Assembly: GCA_035371485.1 (NCBI GenBank)
Contig: DAOOWV010000002.1
Coordinates: 1-54,798 of the forward strand
Origin: Candidatus Dojkabacteria bacterium
GTDB taxonomy: Bacteria > Patescibacteriota > Dojkabacteria > JAFGLO01
Length of the DNA stretch: 54,798 nt
Direction: 5' to 3'
The notes beneath the pieces were generated by a model. The model searched no databases. It was not told where the DNA came from and saw nothing but the letters and a program-made list of their open reading frames with translations. Shown here piece by piece: positions 2,166-48,848 of the stretch. The first letter of the stretch is position 1. Each line of letters begins with the position of its first letter. The position numbers were made by a program, and so were the translations under genes.

Positions 2166-2705
2166 ATGAACATTAACATTCCAATAAAAATTTGCAGGAA
2201 AAAAGTTAAGAATCTTTCACTAAAAATAGATCCTATGGGAAATGTTACAGTTACAGCACCTTTTTTTTTATCTCTTAGTGAAATTAACAATTGGATACAA
2301 CCGAAAAAAAAATGGATCTTTAAAAATATAAATAGACTTAATGGCATAGATCAGAACAATATTGAAATTAGCAATTTCACACGAAACGAAGCTAAAGCAA
2401 AGATAATAGAATACGTCAAAGAATCATCAATAATCACACAAACGACTATTAATAAAATCTATATCTCTTCAGCAAAAACAAGATGGGGAACCTGCAGTAG
2501 TAAAGGAAATGTTCGAATAAATTGGAAACTAATTAATGCTCCAGATGAAATACTACAATATGTCATATTTCATGAATTATGCCACCTAAAACATCCAAAT
2601 CATTCTAGACAGTTCTGGGCCGAAGTATCCAAATACGATCCACAATATAAAATACATCGTAAATGGCTAAAAGAAAATGGACATAAGTTACAGAAGGCAG
2701 GTTAA
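2166..2705 (+). CDS. YgjP-like (DUF45/M48-type) metal-dependent hydrolase
   Basis: C-terminal HExxH context FHELCHLKHPNHSRQFW followed by YKIHRKWLK, which is typical of the YgjP/DUF45 family. Confidence 0.75.
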   Translation: MNINIPIKICRKKVKNLSLKIDPMGNVTVTAPFFLSLSEINNWIQPKKKWIFKNINRLNGIDQNNIEISNFTRNEAKAKIIEYVKESSIITQTTINKIYISSAKTRWGTCSSKGNVRINWKLINAPDEILQYVIFHELCHLKHPNHSRQFWAEVSKYDPQYKIHRKWLKENGHKLQKAG

Positions 2706-2745
2706 GTTAAGTGATAAGTAATAAGTAATAAGTGATAAGTACCCT
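2701..2745. repeat. Degenerate heptamer array GTRATAA (x4-5) straddling the stop codon
   Basis: gttaa gttaa, then gtgataa gtaataa gtaataa gtgataa gtaccct at 2711-2745. It has stops in all three plus frames. Confidence 0.8.
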
Positions 2746-2879
2746 AAACCCCAAAATCATATATTCTGTATCATTTAAAACAATCCCAACCTTTTTCTAT
2801 TATAGGTTGTAAAAATTCAATAACATATATAGCGTTCTTTGTGTTAAAATACTCTCAACTGTTATTAATTATTAGTAGT

Positions 2880-3046
2880 GCGCTTGTAGTCCCGACAGAC
2901 CACAACGGTAGTTGTAATGGTCTAGTCGAGGATCCTCACACCATATGATTAATAAGGAAAGTGGTGTGGGACTCAATTGGATACGCATCCGCCTCTGGCG
3001 GAGAGCAGACCTTTCTAACGATAGGACTGCTGAATATTGAAAAGAT
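2880..3046 (+). other. tRNA-Arg-like 5' portion (acceptor 5' strand, D arm, UCU-like anticodon context) interrupted by structured inserts
   Basis: Three blocks match the intact tRNA. GCGCTTGTAG (2880-2889), CTCAATTGGATA (2972-2983) and GAGCAG (3003-3008) are identical to 3047-3056, 3057-3068 and 3069-3074. They are separated by an 82-nt self-complementary insert and the hairpin TCCGCC-TCT-GGCGGA. A stem GCAGACC/GGACTGC follows, with a loop that begins TTTCTAA. Confidence 0.5.
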
Positions 3047-3120
3047 GCGCTTGTAGCTCAATTGGATAGAGCAGTCCCGTCCTAAGGGAAAGGTTGGAGG
3101 TTCGATTCCTCCCAAGCGTA
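3047..3120 (+). tRNA. tRNA-Arg (anticodon CCT)
   Basis: Cloverleaf folded by hand. Acceptor GCGCTTG/CAAGCGT (G1.U72). D arm GCTC-AATTGGATA-GAGC. Anticodon arm GTCCC-GTCCTAA-GGGAA. T arm GGAGG-TTCGATT-CCTCC. Discriminator A, and no encoded CCA. Confidence 0.85.
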
Positions 3121-3219
3121 ATGCAGATGTGGAATCGTCTTTCGTGGGAGGTTACCGCCAAAGGCGGATTAGACACTTGAGTTTTGTAAGAGTCTAGCGA
3201 TTCCTCCCAAGGCGTAAAG
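3121..3219 (+). other. tRNA-Arg-like 3' portion (T arm plus acceptor 3' strand) with a 44-nt insert in the T loop
   Basis: GGGAGG-TT (3146-3153), then insert 3154-3197 (hairpins CCGCC-AAA-GGCGG and TAGACACTT/AAGAGTCTA), then CGATTCCTCCCAAG (3198-3211, identical to 3103-3116), then GCGTA. Confidence 0.5.
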
Positions 3220-3254
3220 AAAAAACTGTTTCATATAATTTATTAATCAATAAA

Positions 3255-3656
3255 ATGAAGGATTGGAAAGAAAATTTTAATAAAACCAACCAAAAAGGAA
3301 GTGTTCTAAAAGATACCCCCAGGGGTAAAATGTATATCAGCACTCCAGATGAAATTATGTCTGTAATAAAAGAAATTCCCAAGGGGAAGATTATCAGCAC
3401 AAAAGATATAGCACAACAACTGGCCAAAAAGCATAAAGCCGATTACACATGTGGATTAACAATAGGTATTTTTGTTGCGATTATCGCAAATTATGTCGAA
3501 CAGGAAAAAATAAAAGATGTTCCATATTGGAGAGTAGTCAAAGGCAAAGGAGTTTTGTATGAAAGTTACCTCAGAGAGCCATCAAAACAAGAACAGTATC
3601 TTAAATTAGAAGGACATAAAATAGAAAAGGGGAAGATCGTAAATGCTAGATTATAA
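3255..3656 (+). CDS. MGMT-family / alkyltransferase-like DNA-binding protein (no active-site Cys)
   Basis: IPKGKIISTKDIAQQL...VPYWRVVKGKG resembles the MGMT DNA-binding domain, but the PCHR cysteine is replaced (PYWR). Confidence 0.55.
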   Translation: MKDWKENFNKTNQKGSVLKDTPRGKMYISTPDEIMSVIKEIPKGKIISTKDIAQQLAKKHKADYTCGLTIGIFVAIIANYVEQEKIKDVPYWRVVKGKGVLYESYLREPSKQEQYLKLEGHKIEKGKIVNARL

Positions 3657-3660
3657 AAAT

Positions 3661-3737
3661 TGAGAATTTTAGATTTTGAATTCTGAATTATCGAAAAGTA
3701 AGATAATTTAAAATCTAAAATTCATAATTTATAATTT
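3661..3737. repeat. Heptamer arrays (tNtGAAT type and ATAATTT type) containing a perfect 14-bp inverted repeat
   Basis: Units are tgagaat tttagat tttgaat tctgaat ... ataattt aaaatct aaaattc ataattt ataattt. gaattttagatttt (3664-3677) is the exact reverse complement of aaaatctaaaattc (3710-3723). Confidence 0.8.
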
Positions 3738-3818
3738 CTTAGGGTTACTTTTTTTTCATAAATCACGTATACTTTATTTATAGGTCTTGGTTTTCTTATT
3801 TATTTTTTATTTAATAAT

Positions 3819-4589
3819 ATGGAAAATAAAGCTAAATTCACTACAATTGCTCTTGCAATCCTCCTTATATTATTTATAGGCTACTCAGCATACGCTACTT
3901 ACACAATTATCGACCTTAGGAACGATTTAAAGAACATTGAAAATACAGCTAACACAAAAGATGATAATCAAATCGAAAGCGAAAGTACATCCAATTCAAA
4001 CACAAGTGAAAAAACGCTAAAAGAGTATATTCATCCCTTATATCCAGAGGTTAAAATTAAATATGATAACAGTTGGAAACTAGAAATAAAAGAAGAGGAA
4101 TTTACTATGTCTGTATTTTCTTCAGAATTTGATTCTATTGGAACGAAAACTTCAGTTAAAAATGTATTGATAGAATTAGAAAAAGACTCTACTAAAATCA
4201 AGTTTCACATGTCTCCCTCAATGATGTATGGTAGCGAATGTTCAGGATTCTTTTATACTAAGGAGGAGAAATCAATCAATCAATTAGAAAATGGATGGTT
4301 TAGAATTGAATCAGACACAGGATATGATTACATCAGAAATGCAGTATTTCATGGAACAGAAGATTACGAAACATTTGCTGAATGTGCACTATGGCAAAAT
4401 CAAAACGCTGACGATTATGATTTTGGTATATACGATGATGCAGGTACAGTCGTAACAGAATATAATCACGAGGGATTACTTGGTTTACTCTATATTACAA
4501 TTGAAGTTAATTCTGACAATGATTCTGAGTTATTAAAAGAAGCTGATGAAATAGTAACTCAATCTTCATATGGCTTTTACATTAAGTAA
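3819..4589 (+). CDS. Membrane-anchored hypothetical protein
   Basis: Long ORF with one N-terminal TM helix (FTTIALAILLILFIGYSAYATYTII) and an acidic extracytoplasmic body. No family recognised. Confidence 0.6.
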   Translation: MENKAKFTTIALAILLILFIGYSAYATYTIIDLRNDLKNIENTANTKDDNQIESESTSNSNTSEKTLKEYIHPLYPEVKIKYDNSWKLEIKEEEFTMSVFSSEFDSIGTKTSVKNVLIELEKDSTKIKFHMSPSMMYGSECSGFFYTKEEKSINQLENGWFRIESDTGYDYIRNAVFHGTEDYETFAECALWQNQNADDYDFGIYDDAGTVVTEYNHEGLLGLLYITIEVNSDNDSELLKEADEIVTQSSYGFYIK

Positions 4590-4641
4590 AATTGTAATAT
4601 ATAATTTTCTTTGTTCTTTATTAATTATTATTTAAATAAAA

Positions 4642-5163
4642 ATGGAAAACAAATCAGAAGCACTAAAAAAACTGCTTAAGGTCGGGGTTGAAATTGCCAG
4701 CTTGGCTTTTGTTGCCTTTGGTGCTTTTTCTGATAAGGTTAGAAGGGAGATTTTCGAAAGGGATAAGGGAACTTGCCAACGCTGTGGGAGGAGGTTTAAA
4801 GATGGTTGGATGTTGCAATGTTCGCATTTTGATCATGAAAGAAATGAAGGATATGACGATCCGGAGAATGGACAACTGGAATGCATAAGGTGTCATATGG
4901 CTAATCATTTATCGCAGATGGGCAGTTGGGGAGATGAACATTATAGAGCGGTTGTATTATTAGCTGGTCTTGTAATGAGGGAGGGATATCATACGTGGAA
5001 ATGGTACTTGGAAAATCCAGCCCGCGCCGAAGTGCAAAAGCAAGAGGATATTTCAGATATGTTTGAATTATTTGGTAGAAATGGTTATAATGCTTGGGAT
5101 TTTATAGATAATGATAATGAACAAAGTTATGTCAACAGAAGATTGGTACTTAAAAAGTATTGA
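4642..5163 (+). CDS. HNH nuclease-domain protein with N-terminal hydrophobic helix
   Basis: CQRCGRRF...CSHFDHERNEGYDDPENGQLECIRCHMANH matches the HNH/zinc-finger motif pattern. Confidence 0.6.
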   Translation: MENKSEALKKLLKVGVEIASLAFVAFGAFSDKVRREIFERDKGTCQRCGRRFKDGWMLQCSHFDHERNEGYDDPENGQLECIRCHMANHLSQMGSWGDEHYRAVVLLAGLVMREGYHTWKWYLENPARAEVQKQEDISDMFELFGRNGYNAWDFIDNDNEQSYVNRRLVLKKY

Positions 5164-5945
5164 AACAGACGTGGAATATCTAAACCCAGAATTATATCAA
5201 GATATGCTCAAAACCACCGATGTTACCGTTGCAATTCATAATGCAACTGAGATTACCTTCACAATGGCAACACAGATATTTTGTTGCAAAAAATTTACAG
5301 AAACATTTGGGGACCATGGGGGAGTGATCCCGAATGTTTTAATGATAATGAAATCAATATTGTTTTAAATCCTACAAATACAAGTTATGGTATAGCTAGA
5401 GTTTCTTTCCCAGACTTAATAAATAAGGATTTAACAAATCCTCTGTTTCTGAAGAACACATTTTCTACTATATTATTGATGGAAATAAAACGTATTGTAC
5501 CGATCTAGGATTTGATTATCATTTTGGACCCACAGGAGTAAATGAATACATTAAAAATAAATACGAAGTAATAATAAATGGTGTAAATGACGAAGATAGA
5601 ATCAAAGAAGCAGATGAATTCTTCAAGCAATATTTTGAACTAAATATTGAAAGCACTAATGACAATAATGGTGATACAAATAATTCCCTATTTTATTCAT
5701 ACGAAGGAGAACGAAATGACCTCGGAGATAACACAACTTGGTTAGTATTTAAATACACAAAAGATTCAACTGCATTGGAAAACCTACTTGACAAAAATAG
5801 ACAAACTGAATTTCCCGCATTAGCAAATTTGCAAATTGGCGACAAGTTCATAATAAAATACGATAATATTAACTGCTTAGCCGGAGCAGGAACAGGCTAT
5901 TGTAGGCTATTAACCGAAAATCTTACATTCCCAAAAGTAGAGTAG
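5129..5945 (+). pseudogene. Frameshifted gene of unknown function (three consecutive reading frames)
   Basis: Coding-like sequence continues from frame 2 (5129-5368) into frame 1 (to 5508). It then moves into frame 0 (about 5427-5945, no canonical start). The first junction lies at an A6 run near 5285. Confidence 0.5.
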
Positions 5946-6054
5946 TCATATTTTTCACAACATGCTAAAATCCTCTACAAGTTATGCAAGTTAAAAGTTA
6001 ACAAGCGAACTAGTGAGCAAATGTTGAATTCATGATTATTACTTCTATAAGTTC

Positions 6055-6103
6055 ATATTACTTGTTACTTATTACTTGTTACTTATTACTTATTACTTAG
6101 TTA
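6055..6103. repeat. Heptamer array TTRTTAC x6 directly upstream of thyA
   Basis: atattac ttgttac ttattac ttgttac ttattac ttattac ttagtta. The track ORF start at 6076 (TTG) lies inside this array. Confidence 0.8.
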
Positions 6104-6105
6104 AT

Positions 6106-6918
6106 ATGCAACAATACCTTGATCTTATCAAACATGTTTTGGAAAATGGACGCACTAAAGCTAATCGCTCTGGTTTCTGGGTAAGAAGTGAATTTGGTCA
6201 TATGTCACGTTATGATCTTACAGAAGGATTTCCGCTTGTAACTACTAAAAGAATGCCACAAAAAGTATGGATTCATGAATTACTTTGGTGGATTTCAGGT
6301 GATTGTACAAATACAAAAACATTAAAAGATAGGCTCCCAAAAGATAAAATTAAGATATGGGATATTTTTGCTGATGATGAAGGAAATATTGGTCCACTTT
6401 ACGGCTTCCAATGGCGTAATTGGCCTGGATATGATGGTAAACCAATAGATCAACTTCAAAATGTTATTAATCTTCTTAATGATGATCCTAACTCAAGAGC
6501 AATGATTGTAAGTGCATGGAATGCTGGACAATTAAAAGAAATGCGACTTCCACCATGTCACACCTTTTTTCAATTTTACGCTAGAAAAGACGAACTGAGC
6601 ATGATGATGTATCAACGATCAGGAGATATATTAATAGGAGTACCCTTTAATATTGCTCAATATTCACTTTTACTTATGATGGTAGCACAAGTTACTGGAT
6701 ATAAGGCAAAGGAGTTTATACATGTAATAGGGGATGCTCATATTTATAAAAACTATAAAGAACAAGCATTGGAGCAAATTGGAAGAAAGCCATATCCACT
6801 CCCTAAAATGATATTAAATCCTAAGGTAAAAAATATAGATGATTTCAAAATTGATGATTTCAAAATTGAAAATTACCAGCATCATCCTCCAATTAACATG
6901 AATGTGAATTTAGTATAA
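6106..6918 (+). CDS. thyA: Thymidylate synthase
   Basis: Colinear with classical ThyA from MQQYLDLIKHVLENG through FPLVTTKR, HELLWW, PPCHTFFQFY, YQRSGD and PFNIAQYS. The start is taken at ATG 6106 rather than the track TTG at 6076. Confidence 0.95.
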   Translation: MQQYLDLIKHVLENGRTKANRSGFWVRSEFGHMSRYDLTEGFPLVTTKRMPQKVWIHELLWWISGDCTNTKTLKDRLPKDKIKIWDIFADDEGNIGPLYGFQWRNWPGYDGKPIDQLQNVINLLNDDPNSRAMIVSAWNAGQLKEMRLPPCHTFFQFYARKDELSMMMYQRSGDILIGVPFNIAQYSLLLMMVAQVTGYKAKEFIHVIGDAHIYKNYKEQALEQIGRKPYPLPKMILNPKVKNIDDFKIDDFKIENYQHHPPINMNVNLV

Positions 6919-6934
6919 CTAACTTAGTATAGCC

Positions 6935-7456: not shown

Positions 7457-7561
7457 ATAATAGGTGATACATGAGATATGTTGGGATTTTTAAATTTTGA
7501 ACTCAAAATCTTTCTCATATATCACTTATCAAGTATCATTTAATTTAAATTTAAATAAACG

Positions 7562-7726
7562 ATGGCAAATGATGATTTAGTCAAAAATCTCAAAAAAATG
7601 GAAGAATCTGGATATTTCAAGGAAGATATGAAAATTGATCCAGGAAGTTTTTCACTTGACGGATTAATAGATGATGATGAAGAATCTAAAAAGAAAGGAA
7701 AACCTAATAAGAATTGTAATAAATAG
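7562..7726 (+). CDS. Small acidic hypothetical protein (54 aa)
   Basis: ATG-to-TAG ORF MANDDLVKNLKKMEESGYFKEDMKIDPGSFSLDGLIDDDEESKKKGKPNKNCNK fills the gap before the GT gene. It is below the track length cutoff. Confidence 0.35.
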   Translation: MANDDLVKNLKKMEESGYFKEDMKIDPGSFSLDGLIDDDEESKKKGKPNKNCNK

Positions 7727-7732
7727 CACTTC

Positions 7733-8854: not shown

Positions 8855-8898
8855 TAAATGAGAAATATTAAAAATAATAAGTTAAATTTATTCAAATA

Positions 8899-8926
8899 CT
8901 TATCATATATCATCTATCATTTAGCA
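8899..8926. repeat. Heptamer array NTATCAN x3-4 across a stop codon
   Basis: cttatca tatatca tctatca tttagca. Confidence 0.6.
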
Positions 8927-9971
8927 CTTGATAAACATCACTATTTGAATATTCATCAAGATAGATAACACATCTTATTCCTGCTTCCTTTATAATCCTT
9001 GCACACACAGAGCATGGGCATTTTGTAACCCAAAGAATGGCCTTACTTAAGTCATAACCTAATTTTAAAGCATTAATAATTGCATGCACTTCAGCATGAA
9101 CCGACTCCATAAGCTCAGCATTCTTTCCTAGTTCTGAAAATTCTTTTTCCCTGCGTGCGCCATGATACAAAGTATAACCCTCCCAAGGAGAAATCTTATT
9201 CTGACCAAAAGCAATAATCTTCAATTCACCTTCTTTTGAAAACTCATTTTTAACATAATTCAAATTCCATACTCCATCAATCTGCTTTTCATTTTTCACT
9301 TTTCGTTTTTCACTTTTATAAGTTAGACAAGCTCCCGTTTTCCCGGTCCAATCCCATGATAAATTTTTTACATCATTACAAAAATCTATTATTTGATCTA
9401 TAGAAAATAAATTATCACCTTCGATAGTCAAGTTGTCTGTATTTACAGATTTCCATTTGTTATTAAGCCTTTTATAGTTCTGAATATTAACAGCTTTTAC
9501 ATATTTCTTGACCTCATCTTCGACAATAAAAGGGGAGTGAGTGATAACCTCAATATCATTTTTAATACACTCCCAATATACTGAATTATAATGCAAAATC
9601 CCGGCCCATGAACCATAAAAACCTATCATTCTGGTTGGTTTAAATTCACGAAGAACAAATTTTACATCATTTTGAGAATATGTAAGATGAATCAATAAGT
9701 TCTGATATTTACTATTAATTGATTCCAATATATTATTAACTTGAGCAAAATCCATCTTCCTAAACTGTTCACCGTCCTCCAACCCACTTACATAATTCTC
9801 AACAAGATCACCAATAATTACCAAACGATTTTTCTTTACTTCCTTCAAAATAATTTCCTTAAGTTTTAACACATTTACATAAGCCATACCCAAGATAAAA
9901 CTCTTATCAGTAACACTTCGAATATATTGCTTTTGTTTTTCAGAAAGCTTATTCCAACTTAAATGGACCAT
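8910..9971 (-). CDS. CDA-fold (dCMP/cytidine deaminase-type) zinc deaminase with a long N-terminal extension
   Basis: C-terminal SVHAEVHAIINA...CPCSVCARIIKEAGIRCVIY carries the HAE and PCxxC zinc motifs. The preceding roughly 180-270 aa match nothing I recognise. Confidence 0.7.
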   Translation of the reverse strand: MVHLSWNKLSEKQKQYIRSVTDKSFILGMAYVNVLKLKEIILKEVKKNRLVIIGDLVENYVSGLEDGEQFRKMDFAQVNNILESINSKYQNLLIHLTYSQNDVKFVLREFKPTRMIGFYGSWAGILHYNSVYWECIKNDIEVITHSPFIVEDEVKKYVKAVNIQNYKRLNNKWKSVNTDNLTIEGDNLFSIDQIIDFCNDVKNLSWDWTGKTGACLTYKSEKRKVKNEKQIDGVWNLNYVKNEFSKEGELKIIAFGQNKISPWEGYTLYHGARREKEFSELGKNAELMESVHAEVHAIINALKLGYDLSKAILWVTKCPCSVCARIIKEAGIRCVIYLDEYSNSDVYQVLNDR

Positions 9972-10610: not shown

Positions 10611-10659
10611 CCGTTCACTCGTTCATTTGTTAGTTCGTTCATTCGTTCACTTTTTCATT
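10611..10659. repeat. Short-period (7-8 nt) CGTTCAYT array
   Basis: cgttca recurs at 10612, 10620, 10636 and 10644. Hairpins CAACC-GAA-GGTTG (10661-10673) and CCAGCC/GGCTGG (10675-10680 / 10703-10708) follow. Confidence 0.6.
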
Positions 10660-10715
10660 TCAACCGAAGGTTGACCAGCCTTACTTTTTAAAAATATAGG
10701 AGGGCTGGCATTTGT

Positions 10716-11303
10716 TCACTTTTCACTTTTAGCTTTTAGGTATCTTTCCTTAATTGGTGAATCACTTTCATTCATATAATCTTTAAGCATTTCAGCAAAC
10801 TGTCCACCAATAACTCTTTTTGCTATTTGAGTCGTAGATAAATATAACGATTGCCTTGGGATAATAATGAATTTACCACCATAACCGAGAACAGTTTTAT
10901 ATTCGATAGAGTTTTTATGATCTCCAGTATAATCCTCTTTTACTGATACAAATACATCAGGTTTTAATAGTTCTACCGTTGTTTTGCAGCTTGGAAGGGG
11001 AACAATAGTTACAAAATCAACACATTTTAAGAAACATAGGGTTTCAGCTCTTATCCATTCATCCATAATTGGTTTATTAGGGCCTTTTACTGTTCGAATA
11101 GATTGATTACTATTAACACCCACAACCAACACATCTCCTAACTTCTTAGCCTCTGTTAGATATCTCATTTGCCCCACATGAATCATATCCCAACTTCCAG
11201 CAGTAAAAACAATTTTCTTACCTAAACCTTTAACTTTGTCATGAAAAGTTGACAATTCCTCAGGAACAATCAATTTTCCTTTCAACATCTCTCGTGGCAT
11301 CAT
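10716..11303 (-). CDS. Cytidylyltransferase-like nucleotidyltransferase (RfaE domain II / TagD-like)
   Basis: IVFTAGSWDMIHVGQMRYLTEAKKLGDVLVVGVNSNQSIRTVKGPNKPI matches the family pattern, but HxGH reads HVGQ. Confidence 0.7.
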   Translation of the reverse strand: MMPREMLKGKLIVPEELSTFHDKVKGLGKKIVFTAGSWDMIHVGQMRYLTEAKKLGDVLVVGVNSNQSIRTVKGPNKPIMDEWIRAETLCFLKCVDFVTIVPLPSCKTTVELLKPDVFVSVKEDYTGDHKNSIEYKTVLGYGGKFIIIPRQSLYLSTTQIAKRVIGGQFAEMLKDYMNESDSPIKERYLKAKSEK

Positions 11304-11420
11304 AAAAGTAAGTTCTCAATTTAATTGTGGGGGTATTATATATGATTATCAAAAAAAATGCTCAATGCTAAGTAAGATAGAAGATGGTAGTGTATAGTTA
11401 TTAAATAGTAGGCGGTATGC

Positions 11421-11462
11421 AGTAATCAGTGATTGGTTATTAGTGATTAGTGATCAGTTATT
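11421..11462. repeat. Heptamer array AGTRATY x6
   Basis: agtaatc agtgatt ggttatt agtgatt agtgatc agttatt, preceded by the core GGTATGCAGTA (11414-11424). Confidence 0.8.
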
Positions 11463-11573
11463 AGATTTATTTTGGTTTTTCATTTCTGATAATAAGTCAC
11501 TACCCTCAAATCAATATTTTCACACTTCGCTACTTACCACTTACAGCATACTGCATACCAACCATTGTATCCC

Positions 11574-11594
11574 TTATCACATATCACCTATCAC
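11574..11594. repeat. Heptamer array NTATCAC x3
   Basis: ttatcac atatcac ctatcac, directly after the stop of the kinase gene. It is the reverse-complement type of the 11421 array. Confidence 0.7.
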
Positions 11595-11600
11595 TTAATT

Positions 11601-24954: not shown

Positions 24955-25528
24955 TTGACAAGCAAACTTTAATTAAATCCTCAACAGAATCATTTAATAA
25001 TTTTTGAACCTCTATGTTTTTTATCATTTTATTGACTTCAAACTCCCCAAAGCCCAAACTTTTCATCGCATTTTTTAGCTCATTTATCTTTTCATTATCT
25101 GCACCACTTGAATCTATTGTTACTAATTTCCCAGCTAATTCAACAATTATTCTTTGTGCTCCTTTCTTCCCTACTCCTTTTACCGCACATAGTCTCGACA
25201 CATCACCGGCCTCAGTTATAGTAACAAACTCTTCAAAAGGATAGCTGTTCATTATATCAAGTGCTGTTGTTGGTCCAACTCCAGATACTGTCAATAATTT
25301 CTCAAAATACATAACATCATTCAAATCAATAAATCCAAATAATTCCTCTTTATTTTCACGAATATGATGATAAAGATTTAATTCGACTTCAGAATTTATT
25401 GGCGAACTGTCCAAATCTCTAAAAAGCATAAAAACGGCATATCCCACCCCAGAATTAGTTGCCACAACAGAGAAATTTCTTCCCTTTCTTATTATATTTC
25501 CTTTTATCCAAGCATACACTTTTTTCAA
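24947..25528 (-). CDS. ruvA: Holliday junction DNA-binding protein RuvA
   Basis: HhH motifs VSGVGPTTALDIM and VKGVGKKGAQRII. TTG start. It overlaps ruvB by 8 nt. Confidence 0.9.
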   Translation of the reverse strand: MKKVYAWIKGNIIRKGRNFSVVATNSGVGYAVFMLFRDLDSSPINSEVELNLYHHIRENKEELFGFIDLNDVMYFEKLLTVSGVGPTTALDIMNSYPFEEFVTITEAGDVSRLCAVKGVGKKGAQRIIVELAGKLVTIDSSGADNEKINELKNAMKSLGFGEFEVNKMIKNIEVQKLLNDSVEDLIKVCLSNV

Positions 25529-25589
25529 TTAACAATTAATAACTAATAATTAACAAATGATTATTAGTCCGTTCACTTTTAACTCATTA
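25527..25589. repeat. Heptamer array AATTAAC/AACTAAT type, then CTTTTAA type
   Basis: aattaac aattaat aactaat aattaac aaatgat tattagt ccgttca cttttaa ctcatta, between ruvC and ruvA. Confidence 0.7.
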
Positions 25590-30912: not shown

Positions 30913-31040
30913 TTTATTATTTTATAACTAAAATGTTTTACCAGTAATCACTTTTCGTTCTAAAACAACTCTATTCTAAAAAAAACAATTCCCTGTCGTT
31001 GCTAAAGCTTCAACAGACAAGCCGGCTTGAACGAATTAAC

Positions 31041-31075
31041 TTTTCACCTTTCACTTTTCATTTTTCACTTGTAAT
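31041..31075. repeat. Heptamer array TTTTCAC x4
   Basis: ttttcac ctttcac ttttcat ttttcac ttgtaat. Confidence 0.8.
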
Positions 31076-31076
31076 C

Positions 31077-31159
31077 TGCCGAAGGAGCTCGCACCTTACA
31101 CGAGCTGAACACGAGTTATGTTAACTCGTAATTCTAAAGAAACGATTCCCTCATTCGGC
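31077..31159 (-). other. tRNA-Leu-derived acceptor/T-arm-like element with internal hairpins
   Basis: The minus strand reads GCCGAATGAGGG...[ACGAGTT-AACAT-AACTCGT; AGCTCG-TGTAAGGTG-CGAGCT]...CTCCTTCGGCA. The 16-nt TAATCTGCCGAAGGAG at 31072-31087 exactly repeats 31181-31196, which is the tRNA-Leu 3' end plus flank. Confidence 0.5.
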
Positions 31160-31185
31160 AACCTCTTTTTCTCAACTCAATAATC

Positions 31186-31269
31186 TGCCGAAGGAGGGAA
31201 TCGAACCCTCACCCACTTGCGTGGACGGGATTTTGAGTCCCGCGTGTATACCAATTCCACCACTTCGGC
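31186..31269 (-). tRNA. tRNA-Leu (anticodon CAA), class II
   Basis: Acceptor GCCGAAG/CTTCGGC. D arm with GGAATTGGTATAC. Anticodon arm CGGGA-CTCAAAA-TCCCG. Long variable arm TCCACGCAAGTGGGT. T arm GAGGG-TTCGATT-CCCTC. Discriminator A. Confidence 0.85.
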
Positions 31270-31449
31270 GTGGTTTATTTATTTATTTGTTACGCCTTTG
31301 TGGTGAAAATTTAAGGTGTATACCCTGCCTTGACTTACGTTTCGGCAGATTCACAACCATGTTAGCAACTTCGTTGCTACAGGGTTGGAACAATTCCACC
31401 ACTCCCGCCTGCCTGTCCTTAATTACAATTGTCTGGCGGGCAGGTCGGC
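31270..31449 (-). other. tRNA-Leu-like 5' portion interrupted by two large structured inserts
   Basis: Minus-strand blocks GCCGA (31449-31445), AGTGGTGGAATTG (31403-31391, identical to 31264-31252) and GTATACAC (31323-31316, identical to 31251-31244) keep tRNA order. They are split by a 41-nt GC-rich insert and a 67-nt insert. A degenerate CTTAAAT (UAA-like) segment follows. Confidence 0.5.
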
Positions 31450-31479
31450 CCTCAATAAATAATAATTAATACCCACCCT

Positions 31480-31514
31480 CTATCAATTCTTACATATCAA
31501 CTATCACTTATCAT
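31480..31514. repeat. Heptamer array NTATCAN
   Basis: ctatcaa ttcttac atatcaa ctatcac ttatcat. Confidence 0.65.
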
Positions 31515-31547
31515 GTAATTATTTACAAAGGATTTTACCACATTCCG

Positions 31548-41654: not shown

Positions 41655-41671
41655 TTATTTTTTAAAACACA

Positions 41672-42166: not shown

Positions 42167-42198
42167 ACTTATTTGAATAAAACTTATGTAAAACCGAT

Positions 42199-42573: not shown

Positions 42574-42721
42574 TTATAAACAAACGTGTGAACTTAAAAC
42601 TTTGGTATGTTAGCATATGAAACAAAAAAAAGCAACAGAATTTTAACAGCAGTTAACATGTATTGATATATTAATAATTAGGTGCTAATATAATTATTAA
42701 TTAACTTTATATAACCATACT

Positions 42722-43564: not shown

Positions 43565-43566
43565 TT

Positions 43567-43608
43567 AAGTAACAAGTAATAAGTAACAAGTAATAAGGAA
43601 TAAATACT
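43567..43608. repeat. Heptamer array AAGTAAC/AAGTAAT (14-nt unit x2, then decay)
   Basis: aagtaac aagtaat aagtaac aagtaat aaggaat aaatact, followed by ctgcatactgtatactgc. Confidence 0.85.
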
Positions 43609-43652
43609 CTGCATACTGTATACTGCCTACAGCCTTCTAATAAAATAACAAT

Positions 43653-44222: not shown

Positions 44223-44263
44223 AGCCTTAAATTTAAAATGTTAAATGTCGAATTGTCGTTGGT

Positions 44264-44312
44264 GGTTAGTGATTAGTGACTAGTCACTTCTCACCTATCA
44301 CGTATCATTTTC
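44264..44312. repeat. Heptamer array switching strand type at a perfect 14-nt palindrome
   Basis: ggttagt gattagt gactagt cacttct cacctat cacgtat cattttc. AGTGACTAGTCACT (44275-44288) is its own reverse complement. Confidence 0.8.
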
Positions 44313-45117
44313 ATTTAAAAACAATTCCCACATACCCCACTACTCCACCCATTTCCCCAGTTATCATTCCTGAATGTTTGTATTCAACTAGTATAGGTTT
44401 TAACTTATTAGCTTTCGCAATAAGAATAGCAATTTCAATCCCGACAAGACCACAAGCCGCTTCTTCTGTAAAATTTGATTCTAAATTCAAAATTTTATTT
44501 ATAGTGTTTTGATCAATTTTTTGTGCAATCTTAGATGGATAATAATGAGATAAATCAGTACTTATTACTAATAAACCATCGTTTTTAATAGTTTCAATTA
44601 AAGTCGAAACCACCCCTTCTGCATCCTCCAAATCACTTGATAACATAGGGATTATCTTTGATTTAGGGTGTAAAATTGATACAAAAGGTAATTGAACTTC
44701 TATTGAATGCTCATCCACAAATGCTTCATTTTTTATACTGAAACCACTAGATTTTGACAATTCATTTATTTTTCCAACATTGCCACTTGCAACCCCAAGT
44801 GGTGTCCACCAAGACGGACATGTGCACAAACCTATATTTTTAACATATTGAGTGTGAGCTGAACCTAAAATGTAAATATTTTTATAATTGTATCCTTCTG
44901 TTTGTTTATAAACCTTACCAGCAACTTTTCCTGAAAAGAAATATCCCGCATGTGGAACAATAATTATCCTTGGAATAGATTTTGTCAACTTCTTTCCTTC
45001 CCCAACATATTCTAAAATATCTCTTTTTAATTCATTTGCGTCTTGAGGATAGAAAGATCCAGCAAATCTTGCCTCTCGTACATTTTCAAAAAAATCATTC
45101 ATTATTGTATTCTTCAC
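44311..45117 (-). CDS. MEMO1-family protein (AmmeMemoRadiSam system protein B)
   Basis: IIVPHAGYFFSG and STDLSHY motifs. Confidence 0.85.
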   Translation of the reverse strand: MKNTIMNDFFENVREARFAGSFYPQDANELKRDILEYVGEGKKLTKSIPRIIIVPHAGYFFSGKVAGKVYKQTEGYNYKNIYILGSAHTQYVKNIGLCTCPSWWTPLGVASGNVGKINELSKSSGFSIKNEAFVDEHSIEVQLPFVSILHPKSKIIPMLSSDLEDAEGVVSTLIETIKNDGLLVISTDLSHYYPSKIAQKIDQNTINKILNLESNFTEEAACGLVGIEIAILIAKANKLKPILVEYKHSGMITGEMGGVVGYVGIVFK

Positions 45118-45128
45118 TATTGTATTAT

Positions 45129-45680
45129 CTAATAATACACATGTTTTAATCCTACTTCCTTCCCTATTTTTACAGCTTTCTCAACAATTTCATAAGATGT
45201 ACTTTTTTTATCCATCATTTTATATGCAGGATGAAAAGCCGAAACATGCCATGGGATTCCACTATCAACACTCTTTACAAATTTAGCTATAGAGGTTATT
45301 TCATCAATTGAGTCATTTTCACCAGGAACAAGTAAAGTTGTAATCTCAACCCATACACCTAATTTATGAGTATATCTTATACTTTCAAGCACGTTATCAA
45401 GTTTCGCTCCACAAATTTTATTATAAAATCTTTCTGTAAATGCCTTTAGGTCAATATTAACTGCATCCAGATATGGGCTTATCATATCTATAGCCTCTTT
45501 AGAATAATAGCCATTTGAAACATAAACGTTTTTTATTCCTTTTTTGTTTGCTAGTTTAGCAGTATCATAAGTATATTCAAAAAAGATTGTGGGCTCATTG
45601 AATGTATAAGCTATTGATGGAATCTTGTTCATAAGACAATACTTTACAATTTCTGAAGGAGAAAGCTCTGTAGCATACAT
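45129..45680 (-). CDS. AmmeMemoRadiSam radical SAM enzyme, C-terminal part (after an in-frame TAA)
   Basis: SPSEIVKYC...IAYTFNEPTIFFEY continues the family sequence. It is in the same frame as 45687-45983. Confidence 0.7.
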   Translation of the reverse strand: MYATELSPSEIVKYCLMNKIPSIAYTFNEPTIFFEYTYDTAKLANKKGIKNVYVSNGYYSKEAIDMISPYLDAVNIDLKAFTERFYNKICGAKLDNVLESIRYTHKLGVWVEITTLLVPGENDSIDEITSIAKFVKSVDSGIPWHVSAFHPAYKMMDKKSTSYEIVEKAVKIGKEVGLKHVYY

Positions 45681-45686
45681 GTTTTT

Positions 45687-45983
45687 TTAACGCACTTGCG
45701 AAATATCTGCATTCTGACAAAACTCACATTTAAAATTACATCCAATAGTACCAATTGAAAATATTTCAGTACCAGGCATAAAATGTCTAAGAGGTTTCTT
45801 TTCTATCGGATCGATAGCTACAGCAATAGGTTTTCCATATACTTCTAAAAATAGCTTTCCTTTCAAATTTTTGCGCACTCCACAAATTCCATATTTTCCT
45901 TCCCCAATCACACAATAATGCTTACACGCCAAGCACCTAACTTTATCCGTCAATAAAGCCTTATATAAAACGCACTCCTTCAT
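45687..45983 (-). CDS. AmmeMemoRadiSam radical SAM enzyme, N-terminal part (Cys-rich region plus CxxxCxxC)
   Basis: CLACKHYCVIGEGKYGICGVRKN...DPIEKKPLRHFMPG...GCNFKCEFCQNADISQ. It ends at TAA 45689-45687. The ATG of the next piece follows two codons later in the same frame. Confidence 0.7.
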   Translation of the reverse strand: MKECVLYKALLTDKVRCLACKHYCVIGEGKYGICGVRKNLKGKLFLEVYGKPIAVAIDPIEKKPLRHFMPGTEIFSIGTIGCNFKCEFCQNADISQVR

Positions 45984-46020
45984 GTCATTTACTTATATTT
46001 AACACTATATCCTTTAATAG

Positions 46021-46055
46021 TTGTTACTTATTACTTGTTAATTGTTCCTTGTAAC
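46021..46055. repeat. Heptamer array TTRTTAC type
   Basis: ttgttac ttattac ttgttaa ttgttcc ttgtaac. Confidence 0.8.
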
Positions 46056-46096
46056 TAAAGTATACCATATTTATGATTTGTGATAAAATCAAAACC

Positions 46097-46131
46097 AAGT
46101 AATAAGTAAGAAGTGATAGGTAATAAGTAAG
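46097..46131. repeat. Heptamer array AAGTRAK type (reverse complement of the flanking arrays)
   Basis: aagtaat aagtaag aagtgat aggtaat aagtaag. 46096-46109 is the exact reverse complement of 46024-46037. Confidence 0.8.
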
Positions 46132-46160
46132 ATTGTTCTATTTCAATCGACCATCTCTAA

Positions 46161-46195
46161 CTTGTTACTTGTTAAGTATTACTTGTTACTTAATC
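46161..46195. repeat. Heptamer array CTTGTTA type
   Basis: cttgtta cttgtta agtatta cttgtta cttaatc, ending 4 nt before the ychF ATG. Confidence 0.8.
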
Positions 46196-46198
46196 ATT

Positions 46199-47299
46199 AT
46201 GCTTTCAGTAGGAATCGTAGGCAAACCAAATGCTGGAAAATCAACATTATTCAATGCACTCACTAATCAAAATGTGCCTGCAGAAAATTATCCCTTTTGT
46301 ACAATTGATAAAAATACTGGAGTTGTTGCTGTTCCCGATGAACGTCTCGATAAATTAGTAAGGCTCTTTGATTCAAAAGAACGCATTCCTGCAACCGTGA
46401 CCTTTGTAGACATCGCTGGTCTTGTGGCTGGTGCATCACAAGGTGAAGGTCTCGGAAACATGTTTTTGGCACATATACGTGAAGTAGAGCTAATTATTTT
46501 TCTATTAGGTGCTTATGAGCAAGAAAGTGAACCAATAGATGATTTAACTGTTGTAGAAACAGAATTAATATTAAAGGATATAGAAACTGTTGAAAAACGA
46601 TATCAGAAAACTAAAAAAGAAAAGAAATATGAAAAAAAGGGAGCAACTGCGTCAAAATTTGATGAGGTTGCATTACTAGAACGTCTTTTATCACAGCTAA
46701 ATAACAATATCCCAGCTATTGCCTTTTCACAAAATCTAGAAGTAGAAGAACAAGATTATATTAGAGAAATGTTTTTGCTTTCAAATAAAAAATATTTGAT
46801 AACACTAAATATCTCTGAGAAAACTTCCTCTGAAACAGTAAGTCAATATAAACAGCAAATAATTCAGGATAGAGCAAAAAAAGGAATTACATTAACTGAA
46901 GAAGAAATATGTATTGTGAATGCAAAATTGGAATATGAAATATCTAGATTATCAGATACTGAAAAGAATGAATATATTGAAGCATTGGGAATTGAATATA
47001 TTGGAATGCCAGCAATAATTAAACGTTGCTACACCATGTTAAACTACATTACCTTTTATACCGGTGATGAAAGGATGATGAATGCCTGGCAAATAATAAA
47101 TGGAACATCAGCAAAAGAAGCAGCAGGAGTTATTCACACCGATCTAATGAATAAATTTATAAGAGCAGATGTTTTATCCTTTGAAGATATTGTTGCTTGT
47201 GGGGGGTGGAAAGAAGCAAGAGCTAATGGCAAAATTAAAACAGTTGGAAAAGAATATGTTTTACAAGATGGAGATCTGATGATAGTGATGCACAATTAA
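46199..47299 (+). CDS. ychF: Ribosome-binding ATPase YchF (Obg-like)
   Basis: MLSVGIVGKPNAGKSTLFNALT G1 motif, and a TGS/YchF C-terminus (GWKEARANGKIKTVGKEYVLQDGDLM). The track start at 46133 (TTG) lies in repeat sequence. Confidence 0.9.
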   Translation: MLSVGIVGKPNAGKSTLFNALTNQNVPAENYPFCTIDKNTGVVAVPDERLDKLVRLFDSKERIPATVTFVDIAGLVAGASQGEGLGNMFLAHIREVELIIFLLGAYEQESEPIDDLTVVETELILKDIETVEKRYQKTKKEKKYEKKGATASKFDEVALLERLLSQLNNNIPAIAFSQNLEVEEQDYIREMFLLSNKKYLITLNISEKTSSETVSQYKQQIIQDRAKKGITLTEEEICIVNAKLEYEISRLSDTEKNEYIEALGIEYIGMPAIIKRCYTMLNYITFYTGDERMMNAWQIINGTSAKEAAGVIHTDLMNKFIRADVLSFEDIVACGGWKEARANGKIKTVGKEYVLQDGDLMIVMHN

Positions 47300-47300
47300 T

Positions 47301-47369
47301 CAAGTAATAGGTAACAAATAACAAGTAACAAGTGAGTTGAAGGAACAAGTTACAAGTAATAGGTAACAA
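47301..47369. repeat. Heptamer array with a 17-nt perfect direct repeat
   Basis: caagtaa taggtaa caaataa caagtaa caagtga... CAAGTAATAGGTAACAA occurs at 47301-47317 and again at 47353-47369. Confidence 0.85.
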
Positions 47370-47557
47370 TAGAAGCTTATATGCAGTAAATGGTAAACGG
47401 TGGGCAGAAAAATTTGGAGTTAGTGCTGGATTAGGAGTTATAAGTGTTGAGTTATTATAAAGAATAATTAATAAATAATAATTATGTTGTTTTTTAGTTA
47501 TTAGTTATATGTTATGAAATAGCAGGTGGGTACAAAAATAATTTTCATTACATCTTT

Positions 47558-47833
47558 ATGAAAAAAATTATGTCAAGGTGTGGAATTATTTGCTCCGAAT
47601 GTAAGTATAGAGAAAAGTTTAATTGTCCTACTTGTCATAAAACAAATGGCAAACCATTTTGGGGAGAATGTAAAGTTGCAGAATGCAGTATTTCTAAAGA
47701 TTTAAATAATTGTTCAGAATGTAATGGTTTCCCCTGCTAACAATTGAAGGATCTTGCTTATGATCCCAAAGAAGGAGACAATGGACAAAGAATTAAAAAC
47801 TTGGAAAAAGAAAGGGAAAGTGAGAAGAAATAA
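47558..47833 (+). pseudogene. Cys-rich DUF3795-like zinc protein interrupted by an in-frame TAA
   Basis: CGIICSECKYREKFNCPTCHK...CKVAECSISKDLNNCSECNGFPC, then TAA (47738-47740), then in-frame QLKDLAYDPKEGDNGQRIKNLEKERESEKK to TAA at 47831-47833. Confidence 0.5.
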
Positions 47834-47922
47834 ATTATATGTGGACAAACTAACAAGTGAACAAGTTAAGAAATTGGTTATAGGTTCACAAGCTAAGATT
47901 ATTGATAAATAATATAAAACTG

Positions 47923-48657
47923 ATGATTGATACAAAATTTAATTTTTATTCAGACGCAAGAGGTGGTGATCCCGATAATATTAGTCCAACTCTTAGAGAA
48001 TATCATAAGAGATTATGGAGTAAACCCTTACCAAGCGGTAAAATTTTTGATCTGAGCAATGATAAAAGTAATGTCTATTTGTACCATAAGTCAGAAATAG
48101 GTGAATTCTTTCTAGGAAGTGATGCAATAACCCATTCATACAAATATCATAAAAGAAAGTGTTGGATTATTAGTCAGATTCCTAAAGAAGTTGACTATCT
48201 ATTTGACATAGGTTCCACTATTGGAGCCTACATCATATTTCCCAATAATAGGATTAAAGGAAGCTTAACAATCAATCAAGCACGAGGAGTAAATAGTCTA
48301 ATTGATGATAGATTTGACTTAACGTTAGAGTGTATTCGTCTTTTTTACCTAGAACAAAAAAGTCCACTATACAATACATTGTTAAGGTACAAAAGCTTTT
48401 TCGATTTATTTCATAACTTTATTAATTACATTCACTTCTTTTTATTAGATGATTTAATTGATAATAAACAAAATATTAAATTTTATTTACCATTCACATA
48501 TTTTCAAACCCGCCCATCGTTCTCAAATACTGACGAGTATTTATTATATAAAGAGAGAGTTACAAACTTTGTTAGATCAAGAAATAAAAGAATTGAAAAT
48601 TATGTCAAAATCAAAAATAGCCTAAAAGAAATAACTGAATTGAACTTATTTACTTAA
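47923..48657 (+). CDS. Hypothetical protein (about 244 aa)
   Basis: MIDTKFNFYSDARGGDPDNISPTLREYHKRLWSKPLPSGK looks like a conserved globular protein, but I cannot name the family. The track start at 47902 is TTG. Confidence 0.6.
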   Translation: MIDTKFNFYSDARGGDPDNISPTLREYHKRLWSKPLPSGKIFDLSNDKSNVYLYHKSEIGEFFLGSDAITHSYKYHKRKCWIISQIPKEVDYLFDIGSTIGAYIIFPNNRIKGSLTINQARGVNSLIDDRFDLTLECIRLFYLEQKSPLYNTLLRYKSFFDLFHNFINYIHFFLLDDLIDNKQNIKFYLPFTYFQTRPSFSNTDEYLLYKERVTNFVRSRNKRIENYVKIKNSLKEITELNLFT

Positions 48658-48728
48658 TCTTAACCTAATATACAATTCAAACCAGAAATAATTTAATAAT
48701 GTGGAGTAAAAATAATTTTGTATTTAGA

Positions 48729-48763
48729 GATCAGTTATTAGTGACTAGTGATCAGTAATCTAA
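48729..48763. repeat. Heptamer array GAYYAGT type
   Basis: gatcagt tattagt gactagt gatcagt aatctaa. Confidence 0.8.
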
Positions 48764-48813
48764 ACTGAGATCTGCGAACTGAATTCTAAGTACCTAGCAC
48801 TTCTAACAAAAAA

Positions 48814-48848
48814 CTTTTCACTTTTAACTCTTCACTTTTCACTCACTA
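48814..48848. repeat. Heptamer array CTTTTCA type across a stop codon
   Basis: cttttca cttttaa ctcttca cttttca ctcacta. It overlaps the last codons of the 48832-49836 gene. Confidence 0.75.

Follow-up and report, generated by a model that had tools for sequence, protein, structure and literature searches.

Heptanucleotides repeated in tandem were reportedly described in heterocystous cyanobacteria by Mazel et al. in 1990, as short tandemly repeated repetitive (STRR) sequences with units CCCCAGT, TTGGTCA, and CAACAGT. As recounted in two later papers (PMC4679880, PMC4692102), heptanucleotide units outnumbered every other class among the long simple-sequence repeats (SSRs) of many prokaryotes in the survey of Mrazek, Guo and Shah (2007), and polymerase slippage tied to a ~7 nt contact was proposed as their cause. 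The present analysis concerns degenerate 7 nt tandem arrays in the intergenic spacers of a 54,798 nt (~55 kb) stretch of DNA, here called the window, from an uncultured bacterium of the Candidate Phyla Radiation (CPR): contig DAOOWV010000002.1 of assembly GCA_035371485.1, Candidatus Dojkabacteria bacterium. An earlier, sequence-only reading of the window had noticed the arrays but knew of no described element class with this design. That was mistaken: intergenic heptanucleotide tandem repeats are in the literature (PMC4679880, PMC4692102). The window's arrays are head-to-tail 7 nt units in three or more copies, with an excess of the 7 nt period, a bias toward non-coding DNA, and restriction to one lineage with turnover between its species, as in the heptanucleotide SSR class; they are a known but unexplained kind of repeat, in a new lineage and with a new unit family. 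A literature search found no paper joining heptamer repeats with CPR bacteria.

The long SSRs of the 2007 survey, to the extent that these papers summarize it (PMC4679880, PMC4692102), resemble the window's arrays in the dominance of heptamers, in sporadic phylogenetic occurrence, and in the exclusion from genes of units that are not multiples of three. The host differs: the summarized parts of long-SSR surveys place 5–11 nt repeats mainly in large GC-rich genomes and cyanobacteria, whereas this is a small AT-rich CPR genome. Membership among the cyanobacterial STRRs proper, or a cyanobacterial origin, can be rejected, as the window has no dimers of CCCCAGT, TTGGTCA, or CAACAGT and its best YchF relatives are Dojkabacteria.

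TAACTGA direct repeats are known from marine Beggiatoaceae, some Cyanobacteria, and Bacteroidetes (MacGregor, 2015; PMC4679880). Like the arrays described here, they are intergenic heptamers containing TAA and TGA (in sets of 2–6 units there), closed to translation in one orientation and open in the other; some overlap the ends of open reading frames (ORFs); their host genes mostly lack Shine-Dalgarno sites; their indels between strains come in 7 nt steps; and collinear sister taxa are without them, the last two points having parallels here (PMC4679880). The BOGUAY repeats, however, have one dominant unit, in a closed “forward” orientation ending 1 nt before starts (PMC4679880), whereas the window has many unit families, and its start-side arrays are in open orientation. 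With 12 single copies of TAACTGA and no dimers, in addition to these open start-side arrays, the window does not belong to the TAACTGA network.

A third group is the G-rich intergenic heptamers GGGAATC of Xanthomonas and GGGGAYT of Nostoc/Anabaena (Rehm et al., 2015; PMC4692102). These too are tandem, 89–93% intergenic, dispersed over their genomes, without any link to surface or phase-variable genes, and found at the same site in sister species with extensive variation in length and sequence. Their polarity is the one reported below for the window: within 0–50 bp upstream of genes the purine-rich strand is non-coding, and within 0–50 bp past the stop it is coding, including overlaps with the stop codon (PMC4692102). 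The window's arrays differ in being AT-rich (AGTRAYA) and stop-bearing, in belonging to several families with no possibility of a G-quadruplex, and in their ~31% GC CPR host. Membership in the G-quadruplex heptamers was rejected: there are no GGGAATC or GGGGAYT dimers and only 0–2 G per unit, yet the polarity is common to both.

Finally, the omega (ParB) protein of plasmid pSM19035 has parS/operator arrays of contiguous 5′-WATCACW-3′ heptads in direct and inverted orientation (PMC9499535). As in the window, 7 bp units occur in both orientations; on the plasmid they overlap promoters, and some window units fit WATCACW. The plasmid system, however, has six sites and a dedicated ribbon-helix-helix protein on a single replicon (PMC9499535), as against variable units at many loci here. 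An omega-type heptad operator was rejected, since the window has no adjacent strict WATCACW pairs and no unit is stable across species.

Period-7 arrays in the spacers

Arrays were called where at least 16 of 21 positions matched at a lag of 7 nt, and the other periods from 4 to 12 were scanned at the same threshold. This yielded 24 arrays of period 7, as compared to 0–2 for each other period. Twenty of the 24 are mainly in spacers, which pooled amount to 7.4 kb, just 13% of the window. The sequence-only reading had proposed autocorrelation of intergenic and coding DNA as a check. Against dinucleotide-preserving shuffles, the intergenic DNA gave z = 10.2 (lag 7), 7.3 (lag 14), and 3.5 (lag 21); the coding DNA of the window had no lag-7 signal, the codon period of 3 being the only one, so that the claimed restriction of the period to spacers holds. 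Two further methods agree: there are 16 chains of four or more TGA/TAA at a constant spacing of 7 nt, and 0–3 at any other spacing, and Tandem Repeats Finder reports period 7, in 3–10 copies, at more than 25 places. Arrays of 3–7 units occupy ~20 of 50 spacers (~40%), and the neighboring genes are unrelated housekeeping genes.

The sites first listed stand, some with corrections. Tandem Repeats Finder recovered 15 of 17 as period-7; of the others, 31480–31514 is a chain of five T-R-A at 7 nt spacing, and 48729–48763 was recovered by the lag-7 scan. The single 8 nt array is confirmed at 10612–10659. Within 3661–3737 the sequence is periodic from 3703 on but not clearly so before, and within 25527–25589 it is periodic to ~25556 but not over the rest of the span. 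The array at 44264–44312 is periodic, but is really two half-arrays in opposite orientation, and that at 47301–47369 is two blocks mutually out of register. Arrays overlooked at first include 7515–7545, 10711–10732, 11530–11559, 43609–43637, 49855–49879, and the intragenic 9285–9317.

When 71 units of the longer chains are aligned on T-R-A, their consensus is A-G-T-R-A-Y-A, and AGTAATA, AGTAACA, and AGTGATA are the most frequent units. The initial description of a few related families and their complements is thus accurate, and most can be reduced to one: GTRATAA, AGTGATT, AAGTAAC, TTTTCAC, and their complements are rotations or variants of A-G-T-R-A-Y-A, and AATTAAC differs from AAGTAAC by one base. 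Minor families are A/T-only (AAATTTT, ATAATTT, TAATTAA), GTATGCA, and the 8-mer GTGAACGA. Each array is homogeneous within itself; it is from site to site that the unit sequence differs. The arrays and associated features are listed by coordinates, strand, and unit:

2706..2741, +: GTGATAA/GTAATAA x5; begins at the stop codon of the YgjP-like gene; sense
3703..3737, no strand: ATAATTT x5; A/T-only family; stops on both strands
6056..6102, −: GTAATAA/GTAACAA x6–7 (TTAYTAC on top); reaches to within 3 nt of the thyA ATG (6106)
7458..7474, +: degenerate ATAGGTG ATACATG AGA; directly past the DHFR stop, sense; 5′ arm of a conserved hairpin
7515..7545, −: TGATAYR x4 (TATCA on top); 23 nt before the start of a 54-aa gene (unk54); 3′ arm of the DHFR-to-unk54 hairpin
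8899..8926, −: ATGATAR x3–4; overlaps the stop of the dCMP-deaminase-like gene; sense; orthologous array in L221
9285..9317, −: period-7/14 array within the dCMP-deaminase-like coding region; Lys/Glu-rich linker
10612..10659, −: GTGAACGA x5–6, the single 8 nt array; between the CTP_transf and HIT genes
10711..10732, −: AAGTGAA x2–3; overlaps the CTP_transf stop; sense
11421..11464, +: AGTGATT/AGTAATC x6; mid-spacer; stops on both strands
11530..11559, −: GTATGCA/GTAAGTG units; downstream of the post-stop array
11574..11598, −: GTGATAR x3; 3–7 nt past the stop of the APH-like gene; sense
25526..25556, no strand: AATTAAC x4; fills the ruvC–ruvA spacer; stops on both strands
31039..31070, −: GTGAAAA x4–5; mid-spacer between tRNA-Leu and the DZR gene; adjoins a 15 nt copy of the tRNA 3′ end
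31480..31514, −: degenerate TGATAR x5; 34 nt past the dnaB stop; sense
43566..43603, +: AAGTAAY x5–6; begins 1 nt past the Band_7 stop; sense
43609..43637, −: GTATRCA x3–4; 15 nt from the AMMECR1 stop, on the convergent side
44252..44307, no strand: composite array, weak hairpin; two inverted halves after the Memo stop
44284–44307, −: GTGATAG-type x4; half of the composite array, directly past the Memo stop
44262–44284: inverted TAGTGAT x3; the other half of the composite array
46021..46056, −: GTAACAA x5 (TTGTTAC on top); abuts the upstream edge of a conserved promoter-like core
46058..46087, +: non-repeat core AAAGTATACCAYATT..TTTGTGATAAAAT, conserved in four species; contains TGnTAAAAT
46097..46131, +: AAGTAAK x5; sense arm of the ychF 5′-leader hairpin
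46160..46195, −: TAACAAG x5 (CTTGTTA on top); reaches to within 3 nt of the ychF ATG (46199); antisense hairpin arm
47301..47369, +: CAAGTAA-type x5, then a second, out-of-register block; directly past the ychF stop
48729..48763, +: AGTGAYY x4; 70–84 nt past the DUF6994 stop; sense
48812..48848, −: GTGAAAA x4–5; overlaps the stop of the DUF7544 gene; sense
49855..49879, no strand: TAATTAA x3.6; divergent spacer before a methyltransferase gene

The intragenic array in the dCMP-deaminase-like gene has counterparts in related loci, as (AAAAACG)n at L221 10568–10610 and L222 773–811, read there as a linker rich in Lys, Glu, Arg, and Asn. Being open in the reading frame used, it can be tolerated. 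The GTGAAAA array at 31039..31070 lies directly beside the first copy of a 15 nt direct repeat, AATCTGCCGAAGGAG, found at 31073–31087 and again at 31182–31196 (copy starts 109 nt apart); in the second copy, 11 nt are the 3′ end of tRNA-Leu(caa) and 4 nt are flanking sequence. By its sequence and position, this repeat looks like an att-type scar of integration at the tRNA gene.

Orientation, turnover, and folding of the arrays

Most arrays have one purine-rich strand with stops in all three frames, here termed closed, and an open opposite strand. Their orientation follows a rule: beside ORFs, the closed strand reads 5′ to 3′ away from the ORF, at starts and stops alike, and is therefore sense just past stops and antisense just before starts. 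Counts for the window and the related loci L095, L218, and L219 are:

Arrays up to 40 nt past a stop: sense-only closure, 10; antisense-only closure, 2
Arrays up to 40 nt before a start: sense-only closure, 2; antisense-only closure, 7

The contrast between the stop and start sides is significant (Fisher p = 0.009). Both post-stop exceptions are 3 nt from the start of the following gene, and both pre-start exceptions are 30–40 nt off the start. Two more loci, L221 and L222, add counts of 4:0 past stops and 0:3 before starts, some of these sites being orthologous to the window's and so not fully independent. Read outward, starts resemble stops: compare ATTAACTAAGTAATAAGTAAT at the thyA start and AATGATTAAGTAACAAGTAAT at the ychF start with TTAAGTAACAAGTAATAAG at the Band_7 stop. 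Since array-free flanks are 50–51% purine on both sides of genes, the polarity is a property of the arrays and not an amplified background composition. A growth gradient was sought along the arrays, but unit perfection had no clear trend with distance from the ORF.

These counts bear out the initial observation that arrays straddle or directly follow stops in sense orientation, and its corollary, that the open strand creates false ORF extensions, is correct at both genes for which it was made. The profile match begins at residue 11 of the ORF starting at 6076 for thyA, and at residue 23 of the ORF starting at 46133 for ychF; both false starts arise from the open strand of minus-strand arrays. 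In practice, then, the arrays lead to false N-terminal extensions and wrong start calls, and they also break assemblies, as in a run of N inside one L221 array.

Why 7 nt is favored in long bacterial microsatellites, and why the arrays point away from ORFs, have been questions since 2007–2015. The window adds a fourth case, from a phylogenetically remote host: the units, AT-rich, are unrelated to the earlier ones, yet the same polarity rule holds in this CPR bacterium. The ORF-relative polarity is thus independent of unit sequence, which argues for a general cause and not for a property of any single sequence such as G-quadruplex formation.

The species of the window recurs, at 99.95–100% identity, in GCA_029547425.1 and at least eight metagenome assemblies of digester type; anaerobic-digester samples holding it include JGI 3300009689, 3300010342, and 3300010345. 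Between the window and GCA_029547425.1 there are two single-nucleotide polymorphisms (SNPs) in 16.7 kb, both in the thyA array, at 6078 and 6092. They are at the same position within the unit, so that a TTGTTAC and a TTATTAC unit are swapped, as expected from intra-array conversion.

Among named organisms, Candidatus Dojkabacteria have the YchF proteins most similar to the window's (46–61% identity), and a genome-collection scan with YchF gave relatives of at most 46% identity. Three sister species are closer, with YchF 86–88% and the dCMP-deaminase-like protein ~65–66% identical to those of the window, and all have a period-7 excess. Counts for the related loci, which group by species as L095/L221, L218/L222, and L219, are:

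L095: 7 period-7 arrays; 0–2 at each of periods 5–10
L221: 14 period-7 arrays; at most 2 at each other period from 4 to 12
L222: 9 period-7 arrays; 0 at the other periods from 4 to 12
L219: 8 period-7 arrays; 0 at the other periods from 5 to 10
L218: 3 period-7 arrays; 1 in total at the other periods from 5 to 10

The comparison of syntenic spacers suggested in the sequence-only reading thus finds arrays persisting in sister species, while none of period 7 is found in the syntenic Dojkabacteria L096 (YchF 61% identical) and L097 (57%), whose spacers are shorter (median 25 vs. 64 nt, p = 0.09). The arrays occur only within a single, shallow Dojkabacteria-like clade. As they are found at 86–88% YchF identity and absent at 61% or less, a comparison of replication and repair gene sets could pinpoint the switch for heptamer slippage.

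At orthologous sites within the clade, the array and its 7 nt period stay, while the unit and copy number change. Past the ychF stop the unit is CAAGTAA, GAGATGA, or TACTTAG depending on species, each carrying the stop type (TAA, TGA, TAG) used by its own gene. Upstream of the ychF promoter-like core it is TTGTTAC, CTGTTAC, TCTCTAT, or ATTATTA. Past the GT4 stop, the window has 2–3 degenerate units, and L221 has more than 25 GTATGAR units with an assembly gap. The leader arrays of the window and L219 are separated by one 7 nt indel.

A metagenome scan for AAGTAAY x3 retrieved 120 contigs (L098–L217), mostly unrelated and none from the window's clade. Several unrelated contigs of 40–60% GC have 4–9 period-7 arrays and few or none at periods 5–6 and 8–10, examples being L134 (6:0, period 7 to other periods), L112 (4:0), and L116 (4:0). 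Heptamer-rich genomes seem to be common in metagenomes.

The arrays fill the slack between conserved signals: the upstream stop codon, a promoter-like core, and the start codon. Non-repeat cores kept in four species stand among the variable arrays at 46058–46087 (ychF), ~5950–5975 (thyA), and ~11330–11365 (CTP_transf gene). The first two have a TGnTAAAAT/TAGAAT motif, and the third is TTGATAAT..TATAAT. From their conservation and match to consensus these are probably promoters, which would imply leaders of ~105–125 nt for ychF and thyA.

Where sense and antisense arrays of one family are in the same transcript, they pair into long hairpins. In the ychF leader, the window and L219 share the layout of promoter core, sense array, loop, antisense array, and AUG. 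In the DHFR-to-unk54 spacer, the stem is made of opposed heptamer arrays, and the 29 nt loop TTTTTAAATTTTGAACTCAAAATCTTTCT is identical in L222, a species in which the protein of the neighboring dCMP-deaminase-like gene shares only ~66% identity. In the thyA leader of L221, both arms have switched jointly to a GATGA/TCATC family. Folding z-scores against shuffles are:

ychF leader: window −5.9; L219 −5.9; L095 +1.5
DHFR-to-unk54 spacer (7457–7561; L222 2534–2647): window −3.7; L222 −5.5
thyA leader: L222 −5.6; window +0.3; L221 −1.2

Such folds are the exception. Thirty-four spacer strands were folded, of which five had z < −2, just two of these through arrays (coding controls, 0 of 26). In a search of Rfam 15, only three tRNAs reached the gathering score, and nothing matched on the arrays even at E ≤ 1. 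Because array-based folds are few and inconsistent between species, hairpins are more readily seen as an occasional by-product or co-option than as the general function. An mRNA 5′–3′ panhandle of the arrays flanking ychF was also considered and rejected: the window and L219 have complementary arrays there, whereas L095 and L218 do not.

Possible origins and functions

The explanation we hold to be probable, if not strongly so, is that the arrays are heptanucleotide repeats generated by slippage and filtered by selection, with some possibly co-opted: by analogy, a microsatellite-like, AT-rich CPR counterpart of the STRR, TAACTGA, and GGGAATC arrays. Strand slippage and intra-array conversion, at replication or repair, would both create the arrays and keep them homogeneous in a lineage with machinery that favors 7 nt misalignments, and selection would then sort those that survive. 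With a unit length not divisible by 3, arrays would be kept out of ORFs, and next to an ORF only the orientation with the stop-rich, purine-rich strand reading outward would persist. At 3′ gene ends they would supply stops in all frames within ~21 nt, at least passively. Same-family sense and antisense arrays on one transcript would form long hairpins, as in the ychF leader and the DHFR-to-unk54 spacer, and a few of these look secondarily constrained. Slippage was among the origins listed in the sequence-only reading, and is the best supported of them. Period, location, and polarity are constant and sequence is variable, which fits local slippage and conversion followed by selection; the turnover of units and copies, the homogeneity within each array, the clade restriction, the clustering of the only two SNPs in one array, and the literature precedents with the same polarity point the same way. 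We infer both the slippage mechanism itself and the nature of the selective filter.

Several points weigh against this explanation. The statistics are drawn from 55 kb and ~53 kb of relatives, rather than whole genomes. No array differs in length among 14 same-species loci from at least eight samples, so the arrays are not hypermutable on that timescale, over which the genomes differ by only ~0.03%. The 42 nt past the ychF stop are identical (42/42) in the window and L219, where the adjacent ychF coding sequence is 72–88% identical per 60 nt block, and the DHFR-to-unk54 spacer, including its 29 nt loop, is nearly unchanged in L222; these sequence comparisons indicate constraint on at least some arrays. 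Together with the start-side polarity, they go beyond pure slippage. Slippage by itself leaves both the number 7 and the start-side polarity unaccounted for, and the selective filter at 5′ ends is an assumption. As to phase-variable contingency SSRs, that class was rejected on the absence of indels in the arrays of the 14 loci and the housekeeping nature of the neighbors (thyA, ychF, dnaB, ruvA).

Selected all-frame stop cassettes are an unlikely alternative, but the least so. A stop every 7 nt would halt read-through or frameshifted ribosomes within three units, insulating downstream cistrons. The arrays abutting stops are all closed in sense, in both sets of loci counted, apart from the exceptions next to a following start; the post-ychF unit changes between sister species but always bears the gene's own stop type, and one post-stop array is perfectly conserved; and Shine-Dalgarno-like motifs and intrinsic terminators are scarce (see below). 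The start-side arrays, however, carry their stops on the non-coding strand (7 vs. 2); three units would be enough, yet there are 5–7 here and more than 25 in L221; and at 31% GC, spacers are rich in stops in any case, all frames being closed within 35 nt in nine of 28 post-stop flanks that have no array. Stop-richness is confounded with purine-richness, and the G-rich heptamers of Xanthomonas and Nostoc share the polarity while being free of stops (PMC4692102). The frame-independent stop proposed in the sequence-only reading therefore fits the 3′-end arrays but not those at starts.

A broader proposal, a little less probable still, is that the arrays are polar functional elements, whose 7 nt register is read regardless of sequence by some clade-specific factor or by the transcription or translation machinery, outward-reading arrays insulating ORFs. 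If so, they would stop ribosomes and/or polymerases leaving or entering, replacing Shine-Dalgarno sites and hairpin terminators; paired arrays would have been recruited as leader hairpins; and the identical polarity of the unrelated Xanthomonas and Nostoc heptamers would be explained. The perfect conservation of the 42 nt past ychF, the DHFR-to-unk54 hairpin, and the start-side polarity keep this idea alive.

Specific versions of function fare less well. RNA or DNA hairpin elements, in which sense and antisense arrays are stem arms that terminate transcription, stabilize mRNA ends, or gate translation, are doubtful. The strongest cases are the ychF leader, with the same layout and fold in the window and L219, the DHFR-to-unk54 spacer with its identical loop, and the thyA leader, strongly folded in L222 and with arms that changed family together in L221. 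But most arrays have no partner, the thyA and ychF loci fold in one species and not in another, there are no U-tracts, canonical terminator patterns are below chance, and Rfam has no match. A general role as terminators or repetitive extragenic palindromic (REP)-like elements, as first suggested, does not hold, since only two of ~15 array-bearing spacers fold significantly through arrays. Membership among REP elements, bacterial interspersed mosaic elements (BIMEs), or intrinsic terminators was likewise rejected, most array spacers folding like shuffles.

We give equally little credence to binding arrays for an oligomerizing protein with a 7 nt footprint, either an omega/ParB-type ribbon-helix-helix protein or a cold-shock or S1 protein on RNA, serving as operators, nucleoid sites, or translational signals. 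The 7 nt register in direct and inverted orientation resembles the 5′-WATCACW-3′ heptads of pSM19035 (PMC9499535), and units such as TATCACA and AATCACT match them; the arrays adjoin promoter-like cores and start codons; and binding of Csp, S1, or CsrA was proposed for the TAACTGA arrays (MacGregor, 2015; PMC4679880). Against this, no two strict WATCACW heptads are adjacent in the window, there is no ribbon-helix-helix or cold-shock gene among the precomputed Pfam hits of its genes, and the arrays are spread over the spacers of unrelated housekeeping genes. Families also differ at orthologous sites (AAGTAAC, GAGATGA, TACTTAG, TCTCTAT, CTCCNTA, AAATTTT), and because they change between sister species, the single sequence-specific binder implied by the earlier suggestion of protein-binding arrays is unlikely.

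Polar pause or roadblock arrays seem very improbable. It is always the T-rich strand (TTRTTAC, TTTTCAC) that reads into the ORF, and an RNA polymerase coming from either side of the gene would find on its non-template strand a TTNTTA-like motif every 7 nt, which recalls the NusG-dependent TTNTTT pause signal of Bacillus subtilis. Pausing of sense transcription would give ribosomes time to load, and polymerases arriving antisense or convergently would be blocked. This is the sole idea to cover the symmetric polarity at both gene ends by one mechanism, and a genome without Shine-Dalgarno sites and hairpin terminators needs some other means of coupling and termination. The argument is one of resemblance, however: GAGATGA, TACTTAG, CTGCATA, and many other families have no T-rich motif, and in Xanthomonas the inward-reading strand is C-rich rather than T-rich with the same polarity (PMC4692102). 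As for chance low complexity or an assembly artefact, a GC content of 31% and the weakness of some listed arrays (3661–3700, 25557–25589) would speak for it, but this is already refuted by z = 10 against dinucleotide shuffles, by the 24 period-7 arrays set against 0–2 at other periods, and by the identity of the arrays in 14 loci of independent assemblies.

Gene context and other observations

The genes of the window are housekeeping genes, including thyA, DHFR, dnaB, ruvABC, ychF, S6-SSB-S18, L9, and L31. The genetic code is standard, with stop usage TAA 33, TGA 13, and TAG 12. A Shine-Dalgarno-like motif is found at four of 58 genes, and the leaders are poor in G and in C; pairing of GGTGAT-like units with the anti-Shine-Dalgarno sequence was set aside for this reason, Shine-Dalgarno sites being hardly used. 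Hairpin-plus-U terminator patterns number two, vs. 6.5 expected, and both are inside genes.

Some G+C-rich spacers beside tRNA genes, at 3122–3254 and 31270–31547 (also ~2870–3045), fold with z = −2.8 and −4.3 relative to shuffles. They have no Rfam match even at E ≤ 1, and by these predictions may be unclassified structured RNAs.

At 51224, the window lacks a single G found in nine other same-species loci, which splits a 1452-aa Laminin_G_3-domain protein into ORFs 50593–51207 and 51222–54785; this is either an assembly frameshift or a strain-specific pseudogene. In the apparent 460 nt spacer past ychF there is a 60-aa cysteine-rich DUF3795 ORF at 47558–47740 (+), below the 80-aa cut-off of the ORF list but called as a gene in L090.

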